A model generated the notes under the pieces. That model had not been told where the DNA came from and made no database searches. It saw nothing but the letters and a program-made list of their open reading frames with translations. A stretch of 64,000 nt of DNA from Akkermansiaceae bacterium (GTDB lineage Bacteria > Verrucomicrobiota > Verrucomicrobiia > Verrucomicrobiales > Akkermansiaceae): positions 6,878 through 70,877 of the forward strand of contig CAIZNN010000154.1 of NCBI GenBank assembly GCA_903934285.1, read 5' to 3'. The stretch's first letter is position 1. Each line of letters begins with the position of its first letter. Shown in pieces: positions 3,078 to 13,448 of this stretch. A program made the position numbers and the translations under genes.

Positions 3078-4169
3078 ATGTCAACCCCTGTTAAACTGGC
3101 TCGTTTCGAGCTGCCCAACCGCCTCCTCCGCAACGAGGACACCGCCACCGATACCTACGCCCAATTCACCGCCGAACCCTTCGAGCGCGGTTACGGCCAC
3201 ACCATCGGCAATTCGCTGCGCCGCGTGCTGCTCTCCTCGTTGGAAGGCGCCGCCATCACCTCGGTGCGCATCGCCGGGGTGCAACACGAATTCTCCAGCC
3301 TGCCCGGCGTGGTGGAAGACGTCACCGACATAGTGCTCAACCTCAAGAAGGTGAAGTTCCATCACAACGACAAGGAACCGCGCATCCTCTCCATCAAAGT
3401 GGAGAAAGAAGGCGTGATCACCGCCGGCGACATCATCGACGACCACATTTACCAAGTCGTCAACAAGGAGCAAGTCATTTGCGTGCTGGACAAAAAGGTC
3501 AAATTCGACTGCGAGTTTGAAGTGCGGGTTGGCCGCGGATTTTCCACCGGCGATGAAAACAAGCGCAAGGACCAGCCCATCGGCGTCATCGCCATCGACT
3601 CGATCTACTCACCGGTGACCCGGGTCAAATATGCGGTGGACACCACCCGCGTCGGTCAAATGACCGACTTCGACAAGCTCACCCTCGACATCTGGACCGA
3701 CGGTCGCACCTCGCCGCAGGACGCGCTGTTGCAGGCGTCGGCGATTCTGCGCCACCACCTCGACGTGTTCGTCAACTACGACGAAAACGCCGTCGGCTTC
3801 GAAGCCGCCCCGGCCGAATCCAGCGAGGAAAACGCCGCCCTCAAGAAGCTGCTCAACATGTCGGTCAACGAAATCGAGCTGTCGGTGCGCGCCGCCAATT
3901 GCCTCAACAACGCCAATATCACCACCGTCGGCCAGCTCGCCATGAAGACCGAGGCGGAAATGCTCAAGTACCGCAACTTCGGCAAGAAATCCCTCAACGA
4001 AATCAAGGACAAGCTCGTCGAGCTCGGCCTGGGTCTCGGCATGACCTTTGAGCCCGCCCTGCTCACCGGCCCGGGCACCGCCTCGCGCGGACCGCGGCTC
4101 GGGGTTGAAGACGAGGCCCCGGTAGGCCTGGCCGATCTGATCGCACAAAACATCGAAGACGACGAATAA
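3078..4169 (+). CDS. rpoA: DNA-directed RNA polymerase subunit alpha
   Basis: AEPFERGYGHTIGNSLRRVLLSSLEGAAI, HEFSSLPGVVEDV and alpha-CTD ELSVRAANCL..NFGKKSLNEI. Confidence 0.99.
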   Translation: MSTPVKLARFELPNRLLRNEDTATDTYAQFTAEPFERGYGHTIGNSLRRVLLSSLEGAAITSVRIAGVQHEFSSLPGVVEDVTDIVLNLKKVKFHHNDKEPRILSIKVEKEGVITAGDIIDDHIYQVVNKEQVICVLDKKVKFDCEFEVRVGRGFSTGDENKRKDQPIGVIAIDSIYSPVTRVKYAVDTTRVGQMTDFDKLTLDIWTDGRTSPQDALLQASAILRHHLDVFVNYDENAVGFEAAPAESSEENAALKKLLNMSVNEIELSVRAANCLNNANITTVGQLAMKTEAEMLKYRNFGKKSLNEIKDKLVELGLGLGMTFEPALLTGPGTASRGPRLGVEDEAPVGLADLIAQNIEDDE

Positions 4170-4200
4170 TCCCCACCCTCACTAGAAACGGAAGCCCCCG

Positions 4201-4620
4201 ATGAGACATCGACGCAACACCACCAAGCTCAAACGCTCCGCCTCCCACCGCCGCTCGCTGCTCGCCAATCTGGCCTGCAGCCTCATCGAGCATGGGAAAA
4301 TCAAAACCACCCTCGGCAAGGCCAAAGCGCTGCGCCCGGTGGCCGAGAAGTTGATCACCCTCGCCAAGCGCGACGATCTGCACTCGCGCCGTCTGGCCAT
4401 CGCTTTCCTCCACCAAAAGGAAACCGTCAAAAAGCTGTTCGCCGAGGTGGCCCCCGCCTCCAAGGACCGCCAGGGCGGCTACTGCCGCATCACCAAGCTC
4501 GGGCCCCGCACCAGCGACGCCGCACCGATGGCCATCATCGAGTGGGTCGACCGCAGCGTGGAAGCTGAAGCTGAAGCCGCCGCCGAAGAACCAGCCGTGG
4601 CCACCGCTGCCGCCGAGTAA
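4201..4620 (+). CDS. rplQ: 50S ribosomal protein L17
   Basis: MRHRRNTTKLKRSASHRRSLLANL..IKTTLGKAKALR..GGYCRITKLGPRTSDAAPMAIIE; directly follows rpoA. Confidence 0.99.
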   Translation: MRHRRNTTKLKRSASHRRSLLANLACSLIEHGKIKTTLGKAKALRPVAEKLITLAKRDDLHSRRLAIAFLHQKETVKKLFAEVAPASKDRQGGYCRITKLGPRTSDAAPMAIIEWVDRSVEAEAEAAAEEPAVATAAAE

Positions 4621-4645
4621 CCGGCGCGCGCCACCCCATCCATCC

Positions 4646-4683
4646 GAGAGCCGCCCGTGCCACCCGCGCGGGCGGCTTTCTTT
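4646..4683 (+). terminator. Rho-independent terminator of rpoA-rplQ
   Basis: GAGAGCCGCCCGTGC / GCGCGGGCGGCTTTC stem followed by TTTCTTT. Confidence 0.75.
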
Positions 4684-4709
4684 GCGCGCGTGGTGCGGGC
4701 AGCGATCGC

Positions 4710-5431
4710 GGCGGGGTCTGGAGAATGCCGAGGCGCGGATAGAGCTCCATCACCCGCGCCATTTTCAGGATGTCCGCCCCATCCATCAGGCTGTCGGCAT
4801 TCAATACCAGCATGGCCTCATAGGCACCACCCCAGGTGCGGACAAAGTCACCGATGTTGCCGGCCCTGTGGTTTTCGTTGGTTTCACGCCGGCGGTAGCA
4901 GATGCGGCCGAAGCCATCGAGGCGGCGGCAGAGGTTGGTCCAGGCGGTTTCCTCGAGCACCCACAAGTTGAGGTCGCGCGTGTCGCTGAGGAGGAAGAAA
5001 TCGAAGGCGCTGAGTTGGCCGGTGGCTTGCAGCGAGCGGTAGATCGCCTCGATGCGGGCGCAGACGCGCACGCTGTCCTCGTTGTAGATGGGCATGACGA
5101 TGGCGAAGCGCCGGGCCAGCTGGAATGTTAGACCGTCGGTCAGGCGGGTGATGCGCGCCGCGCGGCGGCGGCCGCGGAGGGTGTCGAAGGCGCCAAACAC
5201 GGCGTGGAACGAGCCGAGCACGAGCAAGCCATTGAGCACCAGAAACACCGCCAACAACAGGCAGTGCGACCGTTGAAAAACCATCCGCCAGAACAGGTCG
5301 GCCATCCACAAACAAGCCGCGAGATTGACCAGCAGCGTGCTGCTGAAAAACACCAAGCGCCGCAGCCAGCGCCAGAAGTGCCCGAAAAACGGGCGGGTGG
5401 CATCACGCGGCGTTGGCTCGGGAGCATCCAT
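4710..5431 (-). pseudogene. opgH: Truncated glucans biosynthesis glucosyltransferase H (OpgH/MdoH)
   Basis: AIVMPIYNED, FDFFLLSDT, YRRRETNENHRAGNIGDFVRTWG, LNADSLMDG, GILQTPP. Similarity stops at about 4710 and the frame then reads through the rplQ terminator to 4535. The C-terminal catalytic and membrane part is missing. Confidence 0.8.
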
Positions 5432-5808
5432 CAGTCAAAGAAGAAGAACCACAGGGGTGCGGAAATGACTGCCAGCAGGAGGGCGACGACCATCATGCGG
5501 ACGATCGGGCGGCGGTCCATGGTATCCCACCATTGCGCGGCGCTGTTGCCAAAGGCATTGAGTTCGAGCGGCTTGGCGACCATCGGCAGGCCGGCGAAAT
5601 TCGGCCCGGCGGCCAGATAGCAACTGCGCATCGCCGCGACGAACGCACCCGGCCAGGGCGGCGGCGTGAGGAACACACTCTGCCATTGGTCGGGCATGCC
5701 GGTGAGCAGCAGGGCAAGGCGGCCACGGGCGGCGAGGCGGCTGTTTTCCAGCGGTTCGGCCAACACGTCCTGGGTCCAGGCCGAGATTTCCGCCAGCGCT
5801 TCTTCCAT
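5431..5808 (-). CDS. Hypothetical membrane protein coupled to opgH (possibly 5'-truncated)
   Basis: 125-aa ORF with a C-terminal hydrophobic helix; its stop overlaps the opgH ATG. Confidence 0.5.
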   Translation of the reverse strand: MEEALAEISAWTQDVLAEPLENSRLAARGRLALLLTGMPDQWQSVFLTPPPWPGAFVAAMRSCYLAAGPNFAGLPMVAKPLELNAFGNSAAQWWDTMDRRPIVRMMVVALLLAVISAPLWFFFFD

Positions 5809-5900
5809 GGCGAGCGGGCTGGCGGGTTGCCACAGCGTCGTGACTTAGCCGTGTTGACAACAAAATTGGCATTTGCCGTCAACCATGACCATCGGCGGGG

Positions 5901-6572
5901 TCACGCAAACTGCAACAGCGAATCGACCTCGAGAAAATCCTGGCCATAGATCAGGTGTGCCAGCAGCGGCACCCCGGCGAGGTCCTCGAGCACCCCTTTG
6001 TTGGTGATCATCGCGGTGTCCATTTCGTCCTCTAACTGGTTGAGGACGATCCCGGCACAGGTCAGGCCGCGGCTGCGAATCGCGTTGACGGTCAGCAGCA
6101 CGTGGTTGAGGCAACCGAGGCGGTTGGCGGCCACCACGATGACCGGCAGGGCGAGCGCCGCGGCCAAATCCGCCACGCGCAGGCCGGGGGCCAGCGGCAC
6201 CTCCCAGCCGCCGACGCCTTCCACCAGCACGCTGGCGTGACGTGCGGCGAGGTGTTGATAGCCCTGCATCAATTCGGCGAGCGTGATGTTGCGGTTTTCC
6301 AACATGGCGGCGACCAGCGGGGCGAGCGCGGGTTTGAGAAACACCGGGTTGACCTCATCCCGCGGCAGATCGCCCGAGGCGGCGGCCAGGATGGTGGCAT
6401 CCGCCCGATTGCCGCAGGCCACCGGCTTGTAGCCGACCGCGTCGATGCCCTCGTTGCGCAGGGTTGCCAGGATCAAGCGGGTCACGTAGGTCTTGCCCAC
6501 GTCGGTATCGGTGCCGGTGATGAATGCGCTCACCCCCAAGCCGTGGCTTAACTCGCGCGCGGCGTCAAGCAT
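5901..6572 (-). CDS. bioD: Dethiobiotin synthase
   Basis: FITGTDTDVGKT, GYKPVACG, LVEGVGG and RLGCLNH motifs. Start uncertain (6572 ATG or 6533 GTG); the track's 6725 looks over-extended. Confidence 0.92.
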   Translation of the reverse strand: MLDAARELSHGLGVSAFITGTDTDVGKTYVTRLILATLRNEGIDAVGYKPVACGNRADATILAAASGDLPRDEVNPVFLKPALAPLVAAMLENRNITLAELMQGYQHLAARHASVLVEGVGGWEVPLAPGLRVADLAAALALPVIVVAANRLGCLNHVLLTVNAIRSRGLTCAGIVLNQLEDEMDTAMITNKGVLEDLAGVPLLAHLIYGQDFLEVDSLLQFA

Positions 6573-6708
6573 TGTGGCTGCGGCGTCCTGCCGCAGGCCG
6601 TGGCGGCGCGCCGCCGGCCGCCGCGGCCATGGGACGTCCATGGTGATTTCATTTAGGGTGCCGCCCCCCAGCGGTTCCCGATGCGCGAAACTTGCCGCAG
6701 AAAACCGC

Positions 6709-6741
6709 TTGCCAATCCGCTGCACTGTATTACGGTATTAC
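6709..6741 (+). promoter_or_regulatory. Promoter and probable operator of the vapBC module
   Basis: TTGCCA-N16-TACGGT-N7-ATG, overlapped by direct repeats GTATTAC (6727-33 and 6735-41). Confidence 0.5.
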
Positions 6742-6743
6742 TC

Positions 6744-6986
6744 ATGAAGACAATCACCTTCAAAGTCAGCGATGACGAGGCGAGCCTGATCCGCCATCTG
6801 GCCAAACTGGAGCGGGTCAGCTTGTCGGGGTATTTGCGCCGGCGGGCCACTGGCATGGGCAAGGTGCCAGCATTGCCGCAGCGGGTGCGTTGCGAGTTCA
6901 CCGGGGCGATGATTTTTGCCCCGATGCCTGGCCAGAACGGGCTGACCACAGCGGCCGTGCGTGAAATGCTTGGCGAGTTCCCGTGA
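6744..6986 (+). CDS. Ribbon-helix-helix antitoxin (VapB-like)
   Basis: MKTITFKVSDDEASLIRHLAKLERVSLSGYLRR has an RHH pattern; overlaps the downstream PIN gene by 4 nt. Confidence 0.75.
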   Translation: MKTITFKVSDDEASLIRHLAKLERVSLSGYLRRRATGMGKVPALPQRVRCEFTGAMIFAPMPGQNGLTTAAVREMLGEFP

Positions 6987-7402
6987 TGAACTACCTGCTC
7001 GACGTCAACGTGTTAGTTGCGTGGGGGTGGGCGGATCATGCCGACCACCCGCGGGTTGGGGCGTGGCTTGGCAAGATGAAGGCAAAGCGTGGCATCACGC
7101 TGGTCACCTCGGCCATCCCTGAGTTGGGCTTTGTTCGCGTTTCGGTCCAGCGCACCGGCGGCCGCCTGCCGGTGTCCGAAGCGGCAGCGACTTTGGCAGG
7201 AATGTTGGGGTCGCTCGGCAAACAGCATGGGTTTTTGCCCGATGATTGCTCCACTGCCGGGGGATTGCCTCCCTGGTGTACGGCCGCTTCCCGCACGACC
7301 GACGCCCATCTTGTCACCTTGGCAGCGCGCCACGGTGGCCGTCTGGCCACGCTTGACGAGGGTATTCCGAATGCGTTTTTGATTCCCATGCACGGGATTT
7401 GA
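6983..7402 (+). CDS. vapC: PIN-domain toxin (VapC-like)
   Basis: YLLDVNVLVA..ELGFVRV..TDAHLVTLAARHGGRLATLD with the conserved acidic PIN residues. Confidence 0.88.
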   Translation: MMNYLLDVNVLVAWGWADHADHPRVGAWLGKMKAKRGITLVTSAIPELGFVRVSVQRTGGRLPVSEAAATLAGMLGSLGKQHGFLPDDCSTAGGLPPWCTAASRTTDAHLVTLAARHGGRLATLDEGIPNAFLIPMHGI

Positions 7403-10543: not shown

Positions 10544-11101
10544 ATGATCCTCGAAATCGTCCAATATGGCCATCCCATTCTCCGCCAGCGCTGTCGCAAA
10601 GTCACCGCGGTGGATGACGCACTCATTGAATTGATCGGCAACATGCTCGACACCATGGTGGAGGCCCACGGCGTGGGTCTGGCCGCACCGCAGGTCGGCG
10701 TGGCGATCCGCCTGGCGGTGGTGGATGTGGCTCATGATCCGGACTGCATTTCTTATCTGCGGGTCAACGGGGTGGCGGTGGATTTGGAATCCATCATGCC
10801 GCTGGTGTTCATCAATCCGGAGTTGGAGTTCGGCCAGCCCAAGGAGTTTGGCTTGGAAGGCTGCCTGAGCATCCGCGAAATCCGCGCCGAAGTGCGCAGA
10901 CCCGCCGAGGTCAAGGCCACCCTGCCGCAACTCGATGGCTCGGTCCTCGTCGTGGAAACCGACGGCTTGCTGGCCCGCGCCTTGCAGCACGAAATCGACC
11001 ACCTCAATGGCGTGTTGTTTGTCGACCGCTTGCCGGCCGTGACCAAGGTGGCCATGCGCAACCGTCTCAAATTGCTCGCCGCGCAAAACCCCGAAGAGTG
11101 A
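10544..11101 (+). CDS. def: Peptide deformylase
   Basis: GVGLAAPQVG, EGCLS and QHEIDHLNGVLF motifs. Confidence 0.97.
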   Translation: MILEIVQYGHPILRQRCRKVTAVDDALIELIGNMLDTMVEAHGVGLAAPQVGVAIRLAVVDVAHDPDCISYLRVNGVAVDLESIMPLVFINPELEFGQPKEFGLEGCLSIREIRAEVRRPAEVKATLPQLDGSVLVVETDGLLARALQHEIDHLNGVLFVDRLPAVTKVAMRNRLKLLAAQNPEE

Positions 11102-11201
11102 GGCGCGGGAGTCGGGGGCCGGCGGCGGACCGCTGTCCCGGCTGTCAGGGCCAACCGGCGGGTCGCCTAATACGGTTCGTTTGGCGCTCTTTGATAGGAA
11201 A

Positions 11202-11289
11202 ACAGGCTTCCAGCCTGGGATGGCAGACAGTGCATCCTGCCTGTCCTCCAATGTAACGACAGGCTGGAAGCCCGTCGGCCATGACAGGC
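11202..11289. repeat. REP-like palindromic cluster
   Basis: ACAGGCTTCCAGCCTG (11202-17) and its near-complement CAGGCTGGAAGCCCGT (11260-75, 15/16), plus a GACAG..CTGTC hairpin. Confidence 0.55.
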
Positions 11290-11456
11290 AACCGCAACAA
11301 CAACTGGCCCAACAACGCCAACAACCACAACGGATTCCGCCTGGCACGAGTTCAACCCGGCACGCCCGCTGCGCAGGCCCGAGGCTGACCCGGCCACCGT
11401 CCCGCCCGCGCCGCCACAAGCGGCGTGGCAAAGAGAAGATGCCCGCCCGGTGCTGG
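11290..11456 (+). repeat. DGR template-repeat-like AAC-rich tract plus 135-bp direct repeat, copy 1 (11322-11456)
   Basis: AACCGCAACAACAACTGGCCCAACAACGCCAACAACCACAACGGATTCCGCCTGGCA reads NRNNNWPNNANNHNGFRLA. The last 135 bp recur at 12386-12520 with 3 mismatches. Confidence 0.7.
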
Positions 11457-11572
11457 CAGGCGTGGTGGCTGCCGCGCCGAACGCTCCGGGCGGGTCTCAC
11501 TCGCGGCCTGCTGCGGCTTCGGCCATGGCAAGCCGGCTTGACAAGCCGGAGCGGAGCATCCATTTTTGGGGC

Positions 11573-11635
11573 ATGACAACGACGGCGACCTTGAAGAAAT
11601 GGGGGAATGGCTATTGCCTTCTGATTGCCGATTGA
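11573..11635 (+). pseudogene. N-terminal stub of an AbrB/MazE-family antitoxin
   Basis: MTTTATLKKWGNG resembles the MazE/AbrB KWGNS motif; preceded by TTGACA-N17-CATTTT-N6-ATG; cut after 13 codons where a long inverted repeat begins. Confidence 0.55.
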
Positions 11636-11730
11636 TGAATGTTGCTTTTGGATTGTTGAAGTGCGCTTGGTTAGTGCGGCCGCGCGTGGCAAACTCACAT
11701 CACAAATCAACAACCATCAATCGGCAATCA
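11622..11730. repeat. Long imperfect inverted repeat
   Basis: TGATTGCCGATTGATG (11622-37) pairs perfectly with CATCAATCGGCAATCA (11715-30); imperfect pairing continues inward. Confidence 0.8.
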
Positions 11731-11801
11731 ATTGTGGGGTAGGTGGATACCGGCGGATATCCGTCCTTGCACTCCGGCCCGCAGGGGTTCATCTTACCTA
11801 C

Positions 11802-12143
11802 ATGCAAACGCTGCGACTTCGCGCCATCATTTACCCAGAGGATGGCCTCTGGGTGGCACACGCCTTGGAAATGGATCTGATCGGCACCGGTGCGACCGAG
11901 ACTGCGGCCTTGCGGGAACTTCGTTCCAATGTCGAGGCGCAGCTATCATTTGCCAAACAGGCAAAGATCAACCCGTTCCATCCGGCACCGGTTGAAATCC
12001 AGAAGCTGTGGGATGAAACCAACCTTGCGGTCCTTGGCATGGTTCGTTCCAGAATGAAGGAACCGGCCCGGTCCACCCGGTTTCTTGAGTGGACGGATGT
12101 GCAAGTGTCACGGATCGGCAAGGATGTTTTCCAGTGTGCTTGA
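11802..12143 (+). CDS. hicB: HicB-like antitoxin
   Basis: RAIIYPEDGLWVAHALEMDLIGTGATETAALRELRSNVEAQL matches the HicB RNase-H-like fold; adjacent to hicA; promoter TTGCAC-N17-CATCTT-N6-ATG. Confidence 0.75.
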   Translation: MQTLRLRAIIYPEDGLWVAHALEMDLIGTGATETAALRELRSNVEAQLSFAKQAKINPFHPAPVEIQKLWDETNLAVLGMVRSRMKEPARSTRFLEWTDVQVSRIGKDVFQCA

Positions 12144-12380
12144 ATGGCCAAGCCGATCAAACTCCGTGAGTTCCTCAAGCGGGTGAAGGATCTCGATCCG
12201 GGGATTGAGGTTTTTGTCAACCGTGGCAAGGGAAGCCATCTCATGCTTTGCAAGACCACCCACAGCGGCAAGGTCTCCTTCCCTGTTCCGACAAGCACGG
12301 GCGAAGTGGCAGGCCCATACCAGAAGGCCGTCATCCGCAGGTTCGGATTGCCAGAGGATGCGTTCAAGAAGCTGCGGTAA
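12144..12380 (+). CDS. hicA: HicA-family mRNA interferase toxin
   Basis: LREFLKRV..RGKGSHLML..FPVP carries the GKGSH catalytic-His motif; 78 aa. Confidence 0.85.
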   Translation: MAKPIKLREFLKRVKDLDPGIEVFVNRGKGSHLMLCKTTHSGKVSFPVPTSTGEVAGPYQKAVIRRFGLPEDAFKKLR

Positions 12381-12385
12381 AACCG

Positions 12386-12520
12386 CAACCACAACGGATT
12401 CCGCCTGGCACGAGTTCAACCCGGCACGCCCGCTGCGCACGCCCGAGGCTGACCCGGCCACCGTCCCGCCCGCGCCGCCACAAGCGGCGTGGCCAAGAGA
12501 AGATGCCCGCCCGGCGCTGG
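12386..12520 (+). repeat. 135-bp direct repeat, copy 2
   Basis: 132/135 identical to 11322-11456; starts 5 nt after the hicA stop. Confidence 0.85.
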
Positions 12521-12788
12521 TAATCCCGCGGATGAAGCCATTACTCATCGGTTTGCCATGAACCTCCGGCAAGTCTGCTGGTGGGCACCTACACGGAGAG
12601 GATTTACCACCCCCCCGGCGCCCCGGAACCGGGATGCGCGGGGATGTTGATGCTTGGTATGGTGGCGACCACGCTGCGCAGGCCAGGGGGTTCAGAGCAC
12701 GGCAAAAAGAATTTTCGATTGGGTGTTTGACAGGTCGGGCGAAAGTCGGCTTATTGCCCGTGCAACCCCATAGTAACTCCGAGCGCGC

Positions 12789-13448
12789 ATGAGCGAAAAC
12801 GAAAAACCAGCCCCGGCTCCGTCGAAACAGACGTCGAGCGTCCCATTGAAAAAGGAAACCGTCCGCGTGACCCTCAAGGCTGCGGATGCTCCCCCTGCCT
12901 CGCCGGTAGCCACCGTGCCCGGCGCCCCGCCAGTGCGGCCGCCCTCGCCGTCGGAACCCCCGCCGCCGCCAGCCCCCTCACTGCCGCCGGTGGCTGGTCC
13001 GCCGCGGCCATTTGCGCCGGCTCCCACCATCGCGCTCAAGCCGGCCGGAGCGCCCACCGCCCCCGCGCCCACCATTCGGTTGGCCACCTCCGCCGCCCCG
13101 CTCGGCGGGGCGCGCACCATCGCCCTCAAAACCGCCACCCAACCGCCGGGAGGCGCCCCGGCACCCTCGTTGCCGAAGGCTACCGTGCAACTCCAGGCAC
13201 CCACCCAGCCGCTGAGTGCCGCCACTGCATCGGCCTCGCAAATGGCCACCCTCAAGATGGACGGAGAGGATGAAGAAAGCGGTGTGAGCGGCTTGTTGAA
13301 GTTCCTCTCCATCGTCGGCTTCATTGCCGCCTGCGTCGTGCTTTACTTCCAGTATGACATCAGCAACACATGGATCAATGCCGTTGACCGCGATGCCGCG
13401 GTGAAAGGGGATTTCATGCAATTGCTTGAACCGGAACCCAATTCCTGA
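12789..13448 (+). CDS. Proline/alanine-rich protein with a C-terminal transmembrane helix
   Basis: Repeated KKETVRVTLK / TIALK / TVQL motifs within Pro-rich linkers, then FLSIVGFIAACVVLYF; TTGACA upstream. Confidence 0.75.
   Translation: MSENEKPAPAPSKQTSSVPLKKETVRVTLKAADAPPASPVATVPGAPPVRPPSPSEPPPPPAPSLPPVAGPPRPFAPAPTIALKPAGAPTAPAPTIRLATSAAPLGGARTIALKTATQPPGGAPAPSLPKATVQLQAPTQPLSAATASASQMATLKMDGEDEESGVSGLLKFLSIVGFIAACVVLYFQYDISNTWINAVDRDAAVKGDFMQLLEPEPNS

Follow-up and report, generated by a model that had tools for sequence, protein, structure and literature searches.

Probable remnants of a diversity-generating retroelement RNA gene in a rearranged toxin-antitoxin island of an Akkermansiaceae bacterium

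The window analysed here, a stretch of 64 kb (64,000 nt), lies within a 71-kb contig (C154) of a 4.8-Mb genome assembly of an Akkermansiaceae bacterium that is 97% complete. Between the gene def and a gene for a proline-rich (Pro-rich) membrane protein, the window carries a tract rich in AAC triplets, two copies of a 135-nt direct repeat, a stub of the antitoxin gene mazE, a palindrome, and two small abutting genes that resemble the toxin-antitoxin (TA) pair hicB-hicA. An earlier note on this DNA had listed the tract, the repeat with its 3 mismatches and 1064-bp spacing, the MazE stub, an inverted repeat, and the two open reading frames (ORFs), and all of these were found where it had placed them. 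The repeats are likely to be the fossil of the non-coding RNA gene of a lost diversity-generating retroelement (DGR), in which a template repeat (TR) is copied by a reverse transcriptase (RT) into the variable repeat (VR) of a target gene. The fossil lies in a rearranged and decayed TA island and is likely inactive.

Data and search methods

Loci with DGR RT genes were gathered from the family and the order as a comparison set for TRs and for the RNA that follows them. The post-TR RNA of 12 RT-linked DGRs was used to build a covariance model, R1, from which the window sequences were left out; RNAalifold on these 12 sequences gave two helices with 17 pairs, 15 of which had compensatory changes. 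R1 was run on the window and the whole genome and in a survey of 201 genomes of the genus. Single bases of the element were compared in a 39-sequence alignment of 37 elements from other loci and the two window copies. The locus on contig C253 of genome G710, which belongs to another species of the genus, was used as the reference for alignment of the window (L134). Exact 24-mer and 21-mer scans of genome and metagenome contigs with pieces of the repeat returned nothing, or chance 21-mers without extended homology, and a BLAST-type search of 60 relatives with the repeat matched only AAC-rich low-complexity or TR sequence. Homology to the relic in relatives was thus detectable only with the structure-aware model and not with the BLAST-type search.

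Template repeat relic and RNA element

The first copy of the TR relic is at 11290-11346 on the plus strand and consists of the triplets AAC CGC AAC AAC AAC TGG CCC AAC AAC GCC AAC AAC CAC AAC GGA TTC CGC CTG GCA, which read NRNNNWPNNANNHNGFRLA. It is the sole place in the window with at least nine AAC per 60 nt and corresponds to the 3' half of a TR of the kind found in DGRs with formylglycine-enzyme (FGE) or C-type-lectin-type targets. The TRs of the collected family and order DGRs were always just 3' of the RT gene, with a 3' half of the form ..AACCGCAACAACAAC..CC...AAC...AACAACAAC..GGxTTCCG, and the window tract was 75% identical to the 3' half of the TR in the intact DGR of the same genome, on contig C98. 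The AAY-rich TR with its ..GFR.. frame is therefore present at 11290-11346 but as a 3' half only, the 5' half being missing in both copies. The second copy (12381-12410, plus strand, 30 nt) has its true 5' start at 12381, where the stop codon of hicA gives way at once to AACCGCAAC and then CACAACGG; apart from 27 nt lost in an in-frame deletion from AAC to AAC, it corresponds to copy 1 from 11290 onward.

The 135-nt direct repeat occupies 11322-11456, inside TR relic copy 1 and the adjoining RNA element, and 12386-12520. Both copies are on the plus strand, at a spacing of 1064 nt, and are 98% identical; the 3 mismatches are G/C, A/C, and T/C. Only these two copies of the repeat are present in the genome. 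The segment that they enclose also includes the remainder of a long GC hairpin. The possibility that they form a TR/VR pair was rejected, as the mismatches are not A-specific (one of the 3 is at an A). The whole relic, from AACCGCAAC to the end of the RNA element (about 210 nt), aligned with the TR and element of three genomes of the same genus (G724, G695, and G694) in which the RT gene is directly upstream of the TR. The earlier note had read the repeat as the remnant of a DGR TR with its spacer, a reading upheld by this alignment and by the R1 match to copy 1 given below; it had also held that the reading would fail if no homologue of the repeat were linked to a DGR RT, and such RT-linked copies are the ones in these three genomes.

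The RNA downstream of the TR has a common architecture of 150-200 nt in the collected DGRs. It starts with CUGA(A/C)CCGGCC..GUCCCG, a variable hairpin, and an A-rich run (GACAAAAC), followed by the 5' arm of a 9-12-bp helix, (GC)UGGUAG, an inner hairpin, CGAAGG, and the 3' helix arm. Copy 1 of the element in the window is complete (11347-11497, plus strand) and comprises a linker, CUGACCCGGCC..GUCCCG, a hairpin, the A-rich GGCAAAGAGAAG, the 5' arm of the closing helix, UGGCAG, the inner hairpin, CGAAC, and the 3' arm of the closing helix; its stretch 11441-11495 ends CCCGCCCGGTGCTGG...CGAACGCTCCGGGCGGG. R1 matched copy 1 over the full length of the model at 11384-11497 (60.3 bits, E 1.8e-11), and every modelled pair was standard. 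Copy 2 (12411-12534, plus strand) is truncated, running through UGGUAAUCCCGCGGAUG and missing the 3' arm of the closing helix; R1 matched it at 12448-12587 (40 bits, E 3.3e-7), with the closing helix not formed and non-standard pairs there. The next-best R1 score in the window was 12 bits, and across the whole genome R1 found only the two window sites and the intact C98 DGR. The GUAG of the internal loop is near-invariant, being GUAG in 36 of the 37 elements from other loci and GUAA in one (L116); at this position, GCAG stands in window copy 1 and GUAA in window copy 2. The window copies are slightly damaged members of the RNA-element family defined here.

The Rfam models RT-3 and RT-17 gave no match in window 10900-12900 at E ≤10, and Rfam found nothing relevant in the window. 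The RT-3 model matched an intact member of the family (L111) over its full length and exactly over the post-TR region; the scores of the intact relative with RT-3 and RT-17 were 22.2 and 24.9 bits, below gathering thresholds of about 40.5 bits (40.5 for the RT-3 match). The element is absent from Rfam as such and is at best a distant variant of the RT-3/RT-17 motifs.

In the genus survey, R1 matched 36 sites in 24 of the 201 genomes. An RT match adjoins about twelve of the 28 sites that were fetched as loci, and orphan elements are common in the genus. Solo elements without a TR were seen at L141, L147, and L162, and an element after a 5'-truncated TR, without RT, at L145. At L136 (G705:C576, about 1300-1615), a top-scoring element (101 bits) follows not a TR but a VR-like, diversified tract (..YRNNGYPPDYSNYRMGFRPA..) with which a target-type ORF ends, and there is no RT within 1.5 kb; either some DGRs have VR/TR flank homology that spans the element, or transfer of the TR information carried the element with it. 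On another contig of the same bin (L163, G705:C194, 3094-5810), a VR precedes a duplicated unit, its copies 1730 bp apart, made of a 300-nt repeat, the last 22 RT codons, a full TR, and the RNA element. Between the copies lie a small ORF and a gene for an HNH endonuclease (Pfam, 44.9 bits); neither the RT gene nor the accessory gene is left. The G705 bin (12.6 Mb, 6% contamination) may be mixed.

DGR components in the genome

One complete DGR is present in the genome, on contig C98 (about 3300-7300, minus strand). It has an FGE-type target with a VR, an HRDC-type accessory gene, an RT, a TR, and an RNA element, the last of a different sub-family from the window element. Another species of the genus has a near-identical copy of the C98 TR and element on a short contig (L016, G019:C11), which suggests recent horizontal transfer of the whole DGR.

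No RT gene was found at the locus: all three RVT_1 matches of the genome are on C110, C56, and C98, and none is on C154. Avd-like (PF05635-type) tblastn matches were confined to C250, C16, and C176, with none at the locus; the earlier note had likewise seen neither RT nor Avd in the window. Between def and the Pro-rich gene there are no ORFs other than the HicBA-like pair and the MazE stub, so that no accessory gene was seen, although no separate HRDC profile was run on the window. For a VR partner, both strands of the genome were scanned with every A free and up to 8 of 36 non-A mismatches allowed, and the tract matched only itself; VRs differing from it at A positions alone, as had been proposed for a check, were not among the results. 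The TR 3' end with its flank had no other BLAST match in the genome. Tyrosine recombinases (PF00589) had no match on C154; serine recombinases were not searched for. RT, VR, and accessory gene were each looked for and not found, and the locus, which gives no evidence of activity, is not an active DGR.

Toxin-antitoxin island

The island to which the relic belongs is intact in G710. There, the hicA homologue closes with ...CAGTAA, and AACTGCCGTGTCGCGAACCGCAACAAC..., a 5'-truncated TR, adjoins it directly; next come an undamaged RNA element (101 bits, the best-scoring orphan), a TTGACA box, mazE, and mazF. The order of the intact island is hicB-hicA, then the 5'-truncated TR (TR') and RNA element, then mazE-mazF. 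MazE of G710 matched Pfam PF04014 (31.8 bits), and its MazF matched PemK/MazF (PF02452, 84.8 bits). With the hicA stop codon abutting a truncated TR and mazEF following the RNA element, G710 agrees with the suggestion of the earlier note that TA modules occupy a DGR locus. A metagenome contig (L166) is 97% identical to the G710 island and has the same junction, in which the TAA of hicA is followed directly by AAC...TR.

Four segments of the window aligned with the G710 locus (L134). Window 11743-12386, with hicBA and its upstream region, aligned with 745-1388 at 87% nucleotide identity; window 11290-11634, with TR', element, mazE promoter, and first 20 codons, with 1398-1752; window 12449-12534, the first two thirds of the element, with 1502-1589; and window 12543-12583, the end of mazF and 24 nt beyond, with 2257-2297. 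The layout of the window is thus a first block of TR', element, and mazE stub, then the palindrome, then a second block of hicBA, TR', and the 5' part of the element, and last the mazF end.

The genes on either side of the island differ between the two genomes, being def and the Pro-rich membrane protein in the window and a penicillin-binding protein and a trypsin-like protein in G710. Given such different flanks, the island has moved, or it is left over from a mobile element. The closest species has infA after def, whereas in the window def precedes a repeat of the repetitive extragenic palindromic (REP) kind, the island, the Pro-rich membrane protein, and thioredoxin. Even that species does not conserve the region past def, which leaves no orthologous empty site to be defined. 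When window 11101-12790 was compared with L045 (G019:C87), the gene order broke right after def. The window is matched collinearly, at ≥99.8% identity and with both repeats present, by contigs of five or more independent metagenome assemblies, which shows the arrangement to be fixed in the population; short-read unitigs break inside the repeats, as expected of a 135-nt duplication. Alleles without the segment between the repeats were sought by look-ups with the exact Def, Pro-rich, HicA, and HicB proteins, which gave only collinear or repeat-broken contigs.

The HicBA-like pair comprises an upstream region at 11743-11801, a hicB-like antitoxin-like gene of 113 aa at 11802-12143, and a hicA-like toxin gene of 78 aa at 12144-12380, which abuts it; all are on the plus strand. 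Neither protein had a Pfam match at E ≤0.1 or an NCBIfam match at E ≤10. The 78-aa protein has 40 homologues, all unnamed, in which G, S, and H (G-S-H) are invariant. Its structure model (predicted local distance difference test [pLDDT] score, 85.6) had as its best PDB fold HicA3 in the HicA3-HicB3 complex (4p78_C; prob 0.98, E 0.043, template modelling [TM] scores 0.52/0.59), and the second fold match was the double-stranded RNA-binding motif of ADAR2. The 113-aa protein had a weak sequence match to TTHA1013 (E 0.45), and its structure model (pLDDT 47.8) was unusable. Differences from G710 in hicB fall at the three codon positions as 7/4/24, a pattern that points to purifying selection, and the third-position bias is also seen in hicA. 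The layout of the pair is kept in unrelated contexts, beside a tRNA gene and in a PIN/UPF0175 TA cluster, and nucleotide homology to those copies stops at the stop codon of the second gene. The earlier name hicB-hicA finds no backing in Pfam or NCBIfam; the label "HicBA-like" is reasonable as one resting on fold and context rather than on family profiles. As the pair is intact and under purifying selection, it is probably a working toxin-antitoxin module. On two metagenome contigs (L070 and L076), a related hicBA-like pair is directly downstream of a tRNA gene, and on L070 a degenerate copy of the tRNA 3' end about 330 bp past hicA resembles the remains of an integrated element.

The mazEF genes are reduced to short remnants, recognised by homology to the G710 genes: 20 codons of mazE and about 20 nt of mazF, with no intact mazEF in the window. 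A promoter-like TTGACA of mazE at 11538-11543 (plus strand) falls within the segment aligned with L134 1398-1752; a generic sigma-70 scan found no promoter site in 11050-12850, a result that is uninformative for the present organism. The mazE stub (plus strand) runs from the ATG at 11573 to the TGA at 11633-11635, and the ORF reads MTTTATLKKWGNGYCLLIAD. Over its first 12-13 residues, the stub (MTTTATLKKWGN) matches the N terminus of the Pfam-validated G710 MazE, which confirms the name given to it before. The mazF tail and right end of the island are at 12543-12583 (plus strand), where the last 20 nt or so of mazF end in the stop TGA at 12559-12561. The mazEF pair of this island is destroyed in the window.

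Neighbouring palindromes

An ORF-less palindrome at 11622-11730, with 32-nt arms (11622-11653 and 11699-11730) that are 84% complementary, cuts mazE and sits exactly at the novel duplication junction. Copies of it, also ORF-less, are on C20 (85% identity), C278, and C264. On metagenome contig L166 (70-845), the same palindrome arms flank an ORF of 118 aa of PF05635, the family of DGR Avd and of the proteins from 23S rRNA intervening sequences. One internally deleted and one full copy of this PF05635 palindromic element are in tandem there, upstream of hicBA, and in L166 1-900 they alternate with 3'-end fragments of the RNA element (CGAACGCTCCGGGCG) at positions 2, 321, and 876; the tandem units of 319 and 555 nt are another local tandem duplication at a DGR-relic locus. 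A related PF05635-type ORF with a similar arm before it was seen in the genome of the window itself (C250:17320-17592).

A second palindromic repeat, of the REP kind or resembling a miniature inverted-repeat transposable element (MITE), is at 11156-11289 and is not part of the DGR relic. It is 3'-truncated where the TR relic starts: other copies continue ...GACAGGC and then AGGATGCCTGTC, and the window switches to AACCGCAAC instead. Copies with 83-85% identity are on C254 and C3 (two copies), with partial copies on C81, C5, and C124 and at contig ends. The hairpin family recurs about 110-180 nt from the ends of C231, C233, C26, C205, C138, C136, and C133 and is probably one cause of the fragmentation of the assembly.

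Origin of the locus

The reading that we hold to be likely is that the repeats are a fossil RNA gene of a lost DGR. Each copy would consist of the 3' half of a TR and the structured RNA that follows the TR downstream of the RT in this bacterial order, the RT, accessory gene, and target gene of the ancestral DGR having been lost. In the lineage of the window, the island would then have been partly duplicated and afterwards eroded. Unit 1 would have kept TR', the element, the mazE promoter, and 20 mazE codons, with the palindromic mini-element at the junction, and unit 2 would have kept hicBA, TR', and two thirds of the element, joined to the final bases of mazF. This may have come about by unequal recombination between copies of the palindromic element and later deletions, or the interior of mazEF may have been replaced in a single event by a second hicBA-TR' segment; both the order and the mechanism of the rearrangements are what we infer from the alignments. 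In intact DGRs, the element is presumably, by analogy with the Bordetella phage DGR, the downstream segment that positions and primes cDNA synthesis, and the relic most likely does nothing today. Orphan elements are common in the genus and tandem relics of RT end, TR, and element occur in another genome; the window is therefore one instance of a recurrent pattern of decay.

Several observations weigh against this history. It needs at least two to three events, and their order does not emerge from the data. The starting point (AACCGCAAC) is the same in both copies, a coincidence that a model of random breakpoints does not predict, although slippage in the AAC repeats or gene conversion could explain it. 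The copies are 98% identical over 135 nt and then differ sharply, each still resembling natural variants of the element, and this abrupt divergence hints at a mosaic origin or at recombination of two related elements rather than at simple duplication. Retention for a function is also conceivable given the undamaged 101-bit orphan in G710 and the many solo elements in the genus.

Such a function could lie in the service of the TA island, with the TR'-RNA module kept as a 3' untranslated region (UTR) or insulator between hicBA and mazEF, as an ACA-rich decoy for a MazF-type RNase, or as a GC-helix hotspot of duplication. The linkage of hicA, TR'-element, and mazEF is conserved in two species and a metagenome contig, with the element undamaged in G710, and tandem duplications recur at such loci; the AAC repeats, read from the sequence, hold many ACA triplets, which would suit a decoy if the ACA specificity of MazF known from E. 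coli is presumed to apply. Both window copies are damaged, however, at the base of the GUAG motif in copy 1, in the closing helix of copy 2, and by the 27-nt loss from its TR, which argues against constraint here, and mazEF itself is destroyed, so that this explanation is quite improbable for the window. In a wider form, the TR'-element would be a retained part of a mobile island of two TA modules (hicBA, TR'-element, and mazEF) travelling between genomes as a unit, with the element acting as insulator or 3' UTR, as ACA-rich decoy, or as a structure-prone site at which the tandem duplications and Avd-family palindrome insertions found at several such loci would be seeded; we regard this as unlikely. 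The view that the repeat is a dispersed MITE/REP whose AAC part resembles a TR by chance could draw on the two genuine families of small repeats nearby, at 11156-11289 and 11622-11730, but it is refuted by the presence of just two copies in the genome and by the homology over about 210 nt to TR and element beside RT genes, and has practically no chance of being right.

The two other proposals of the earlier note fared less well than its identification of the TR. An orphan TR-RNA used in trans, copied by the RT and accessory protein of C98 to diversify a remote target, would find a complete DGR in the genome and an element, in copy 1, with every modelled base pair retained. The A-tolerant genome scan gave it no partner, nor did the BLAST search with the TR 3' end and flank; the TR is without its 5' half, the near-invariant GUAG is GCAG in copy 1, and the C98 element is of a different sub-family with a TR only 75% identical. 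We consider action in trans extremely unlikely. As for an excisable or accreting TA gene cassette bounded by the repeats as att- or attC-like sites, the direct repeats do enclose a 1-kb unit of small genes, similar tandem TR-element relics lie round small genes in G705:C194, repeated fragments occur in L166, and a related hicBA pair is beside a tRNA gene with a partial duplicate of the tRNA 3' end. Yet both ends of the repeat are breakpoints of the G710-type island, copy 2 being the island's own TR'-element after hicA fused to the mazF remnant; the 71-kb contig has no tyrosine recombinase, the repeat is not a symmetric attC-like hairpin, and it has only two copies in the genome. Among the contigs with the flanking genes there is no empty site or alternative allele, the five or more assemblies all being filled. 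A cassette of this kind is thus very unlikely, and the fossil RNA gene remains the preferred account of the repeats.

The locus illustrates the death of a DGR, in which TA genes replace the lost RT and target and the TR tail and its structured RNA persist and can duplicate. Pipelines that call DGRs from TR-like sequence alone would mis-call it. Two by-products of the analysis that may be of use are a covarying post-TR RNA element of a bacterial order, which is a sub-threshold relative of Rfam RT-3 and often has no adjacent RT, and an island of hicBA, TR'-element, and mazEF that was met again in a second species. What novelty remains is in the RNA element itself and in this conserved linkage. 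If the element were functional outside a DGR, that would be new biology; the present results do not show function.

Comparison with known systems

An integron cassette or att-bounded element differs from the segment between the repeats, where the repeat ends are breakpoints of the island and PF00589 has no match on C154. The MazEF system is represented by a stub and a mazF tail that are homologous to the Pfam-validated MazEF of G710, reduced here to 20 codons and about 20 nt. The likeness to HicAB lies in two small abutting genes, a pair conserved across contexts, a tentative HicA3 fold match, and the invariant G-S-H, whereas the window proteins fail the Pfam and NCBIfam models.

The Rfam families RT-3 (RF03068) and RT-17 (RF03020) are candidate RNAs found beside RT genes that may belong to DGRs (Weinberg et al. 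2017, PMC5737381). The family defined here resembles them through the sub-threshold RT-3 match of L111 over the post-TR region; the window itself differs in having no match at E ≤10. In the DGR of Bordetella phage BPP-1, the TR is flanked by a spacer, an Avd-binding stem-loop, and a cPRT-stop stem-loop followed by adenosines, and structured elements have been reported downstream of the TR in 207 of 278 DGRs (bioRxiv 10.1101/2023.10.23.563531); from this work, a structured RNA after the TR is to be expected. The RNA described here is likewise directly downstream of the TR, with a stem-loop and then an A-rich run, while the accessory gene is of the HRDC type and not Avd; the likeness is one of layout, with no sequence similarity claimed, and corresponding roles of the helices would be by inference. 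The closest known systems are the DGRs with FGE or C-type-lectin targets, arranged as target with VR, accessory gene, RT, and TR, as on C98. The window differs from them in being without RT, accessory gene, target or VR, and TR 5' half, in the mutated GUAG of copy 1, and in the lost closing helix of copy 2; it shares with them the AAC-rich TR 3' half ending ..NNxGFRxA and the same RNA 3' of the TR.

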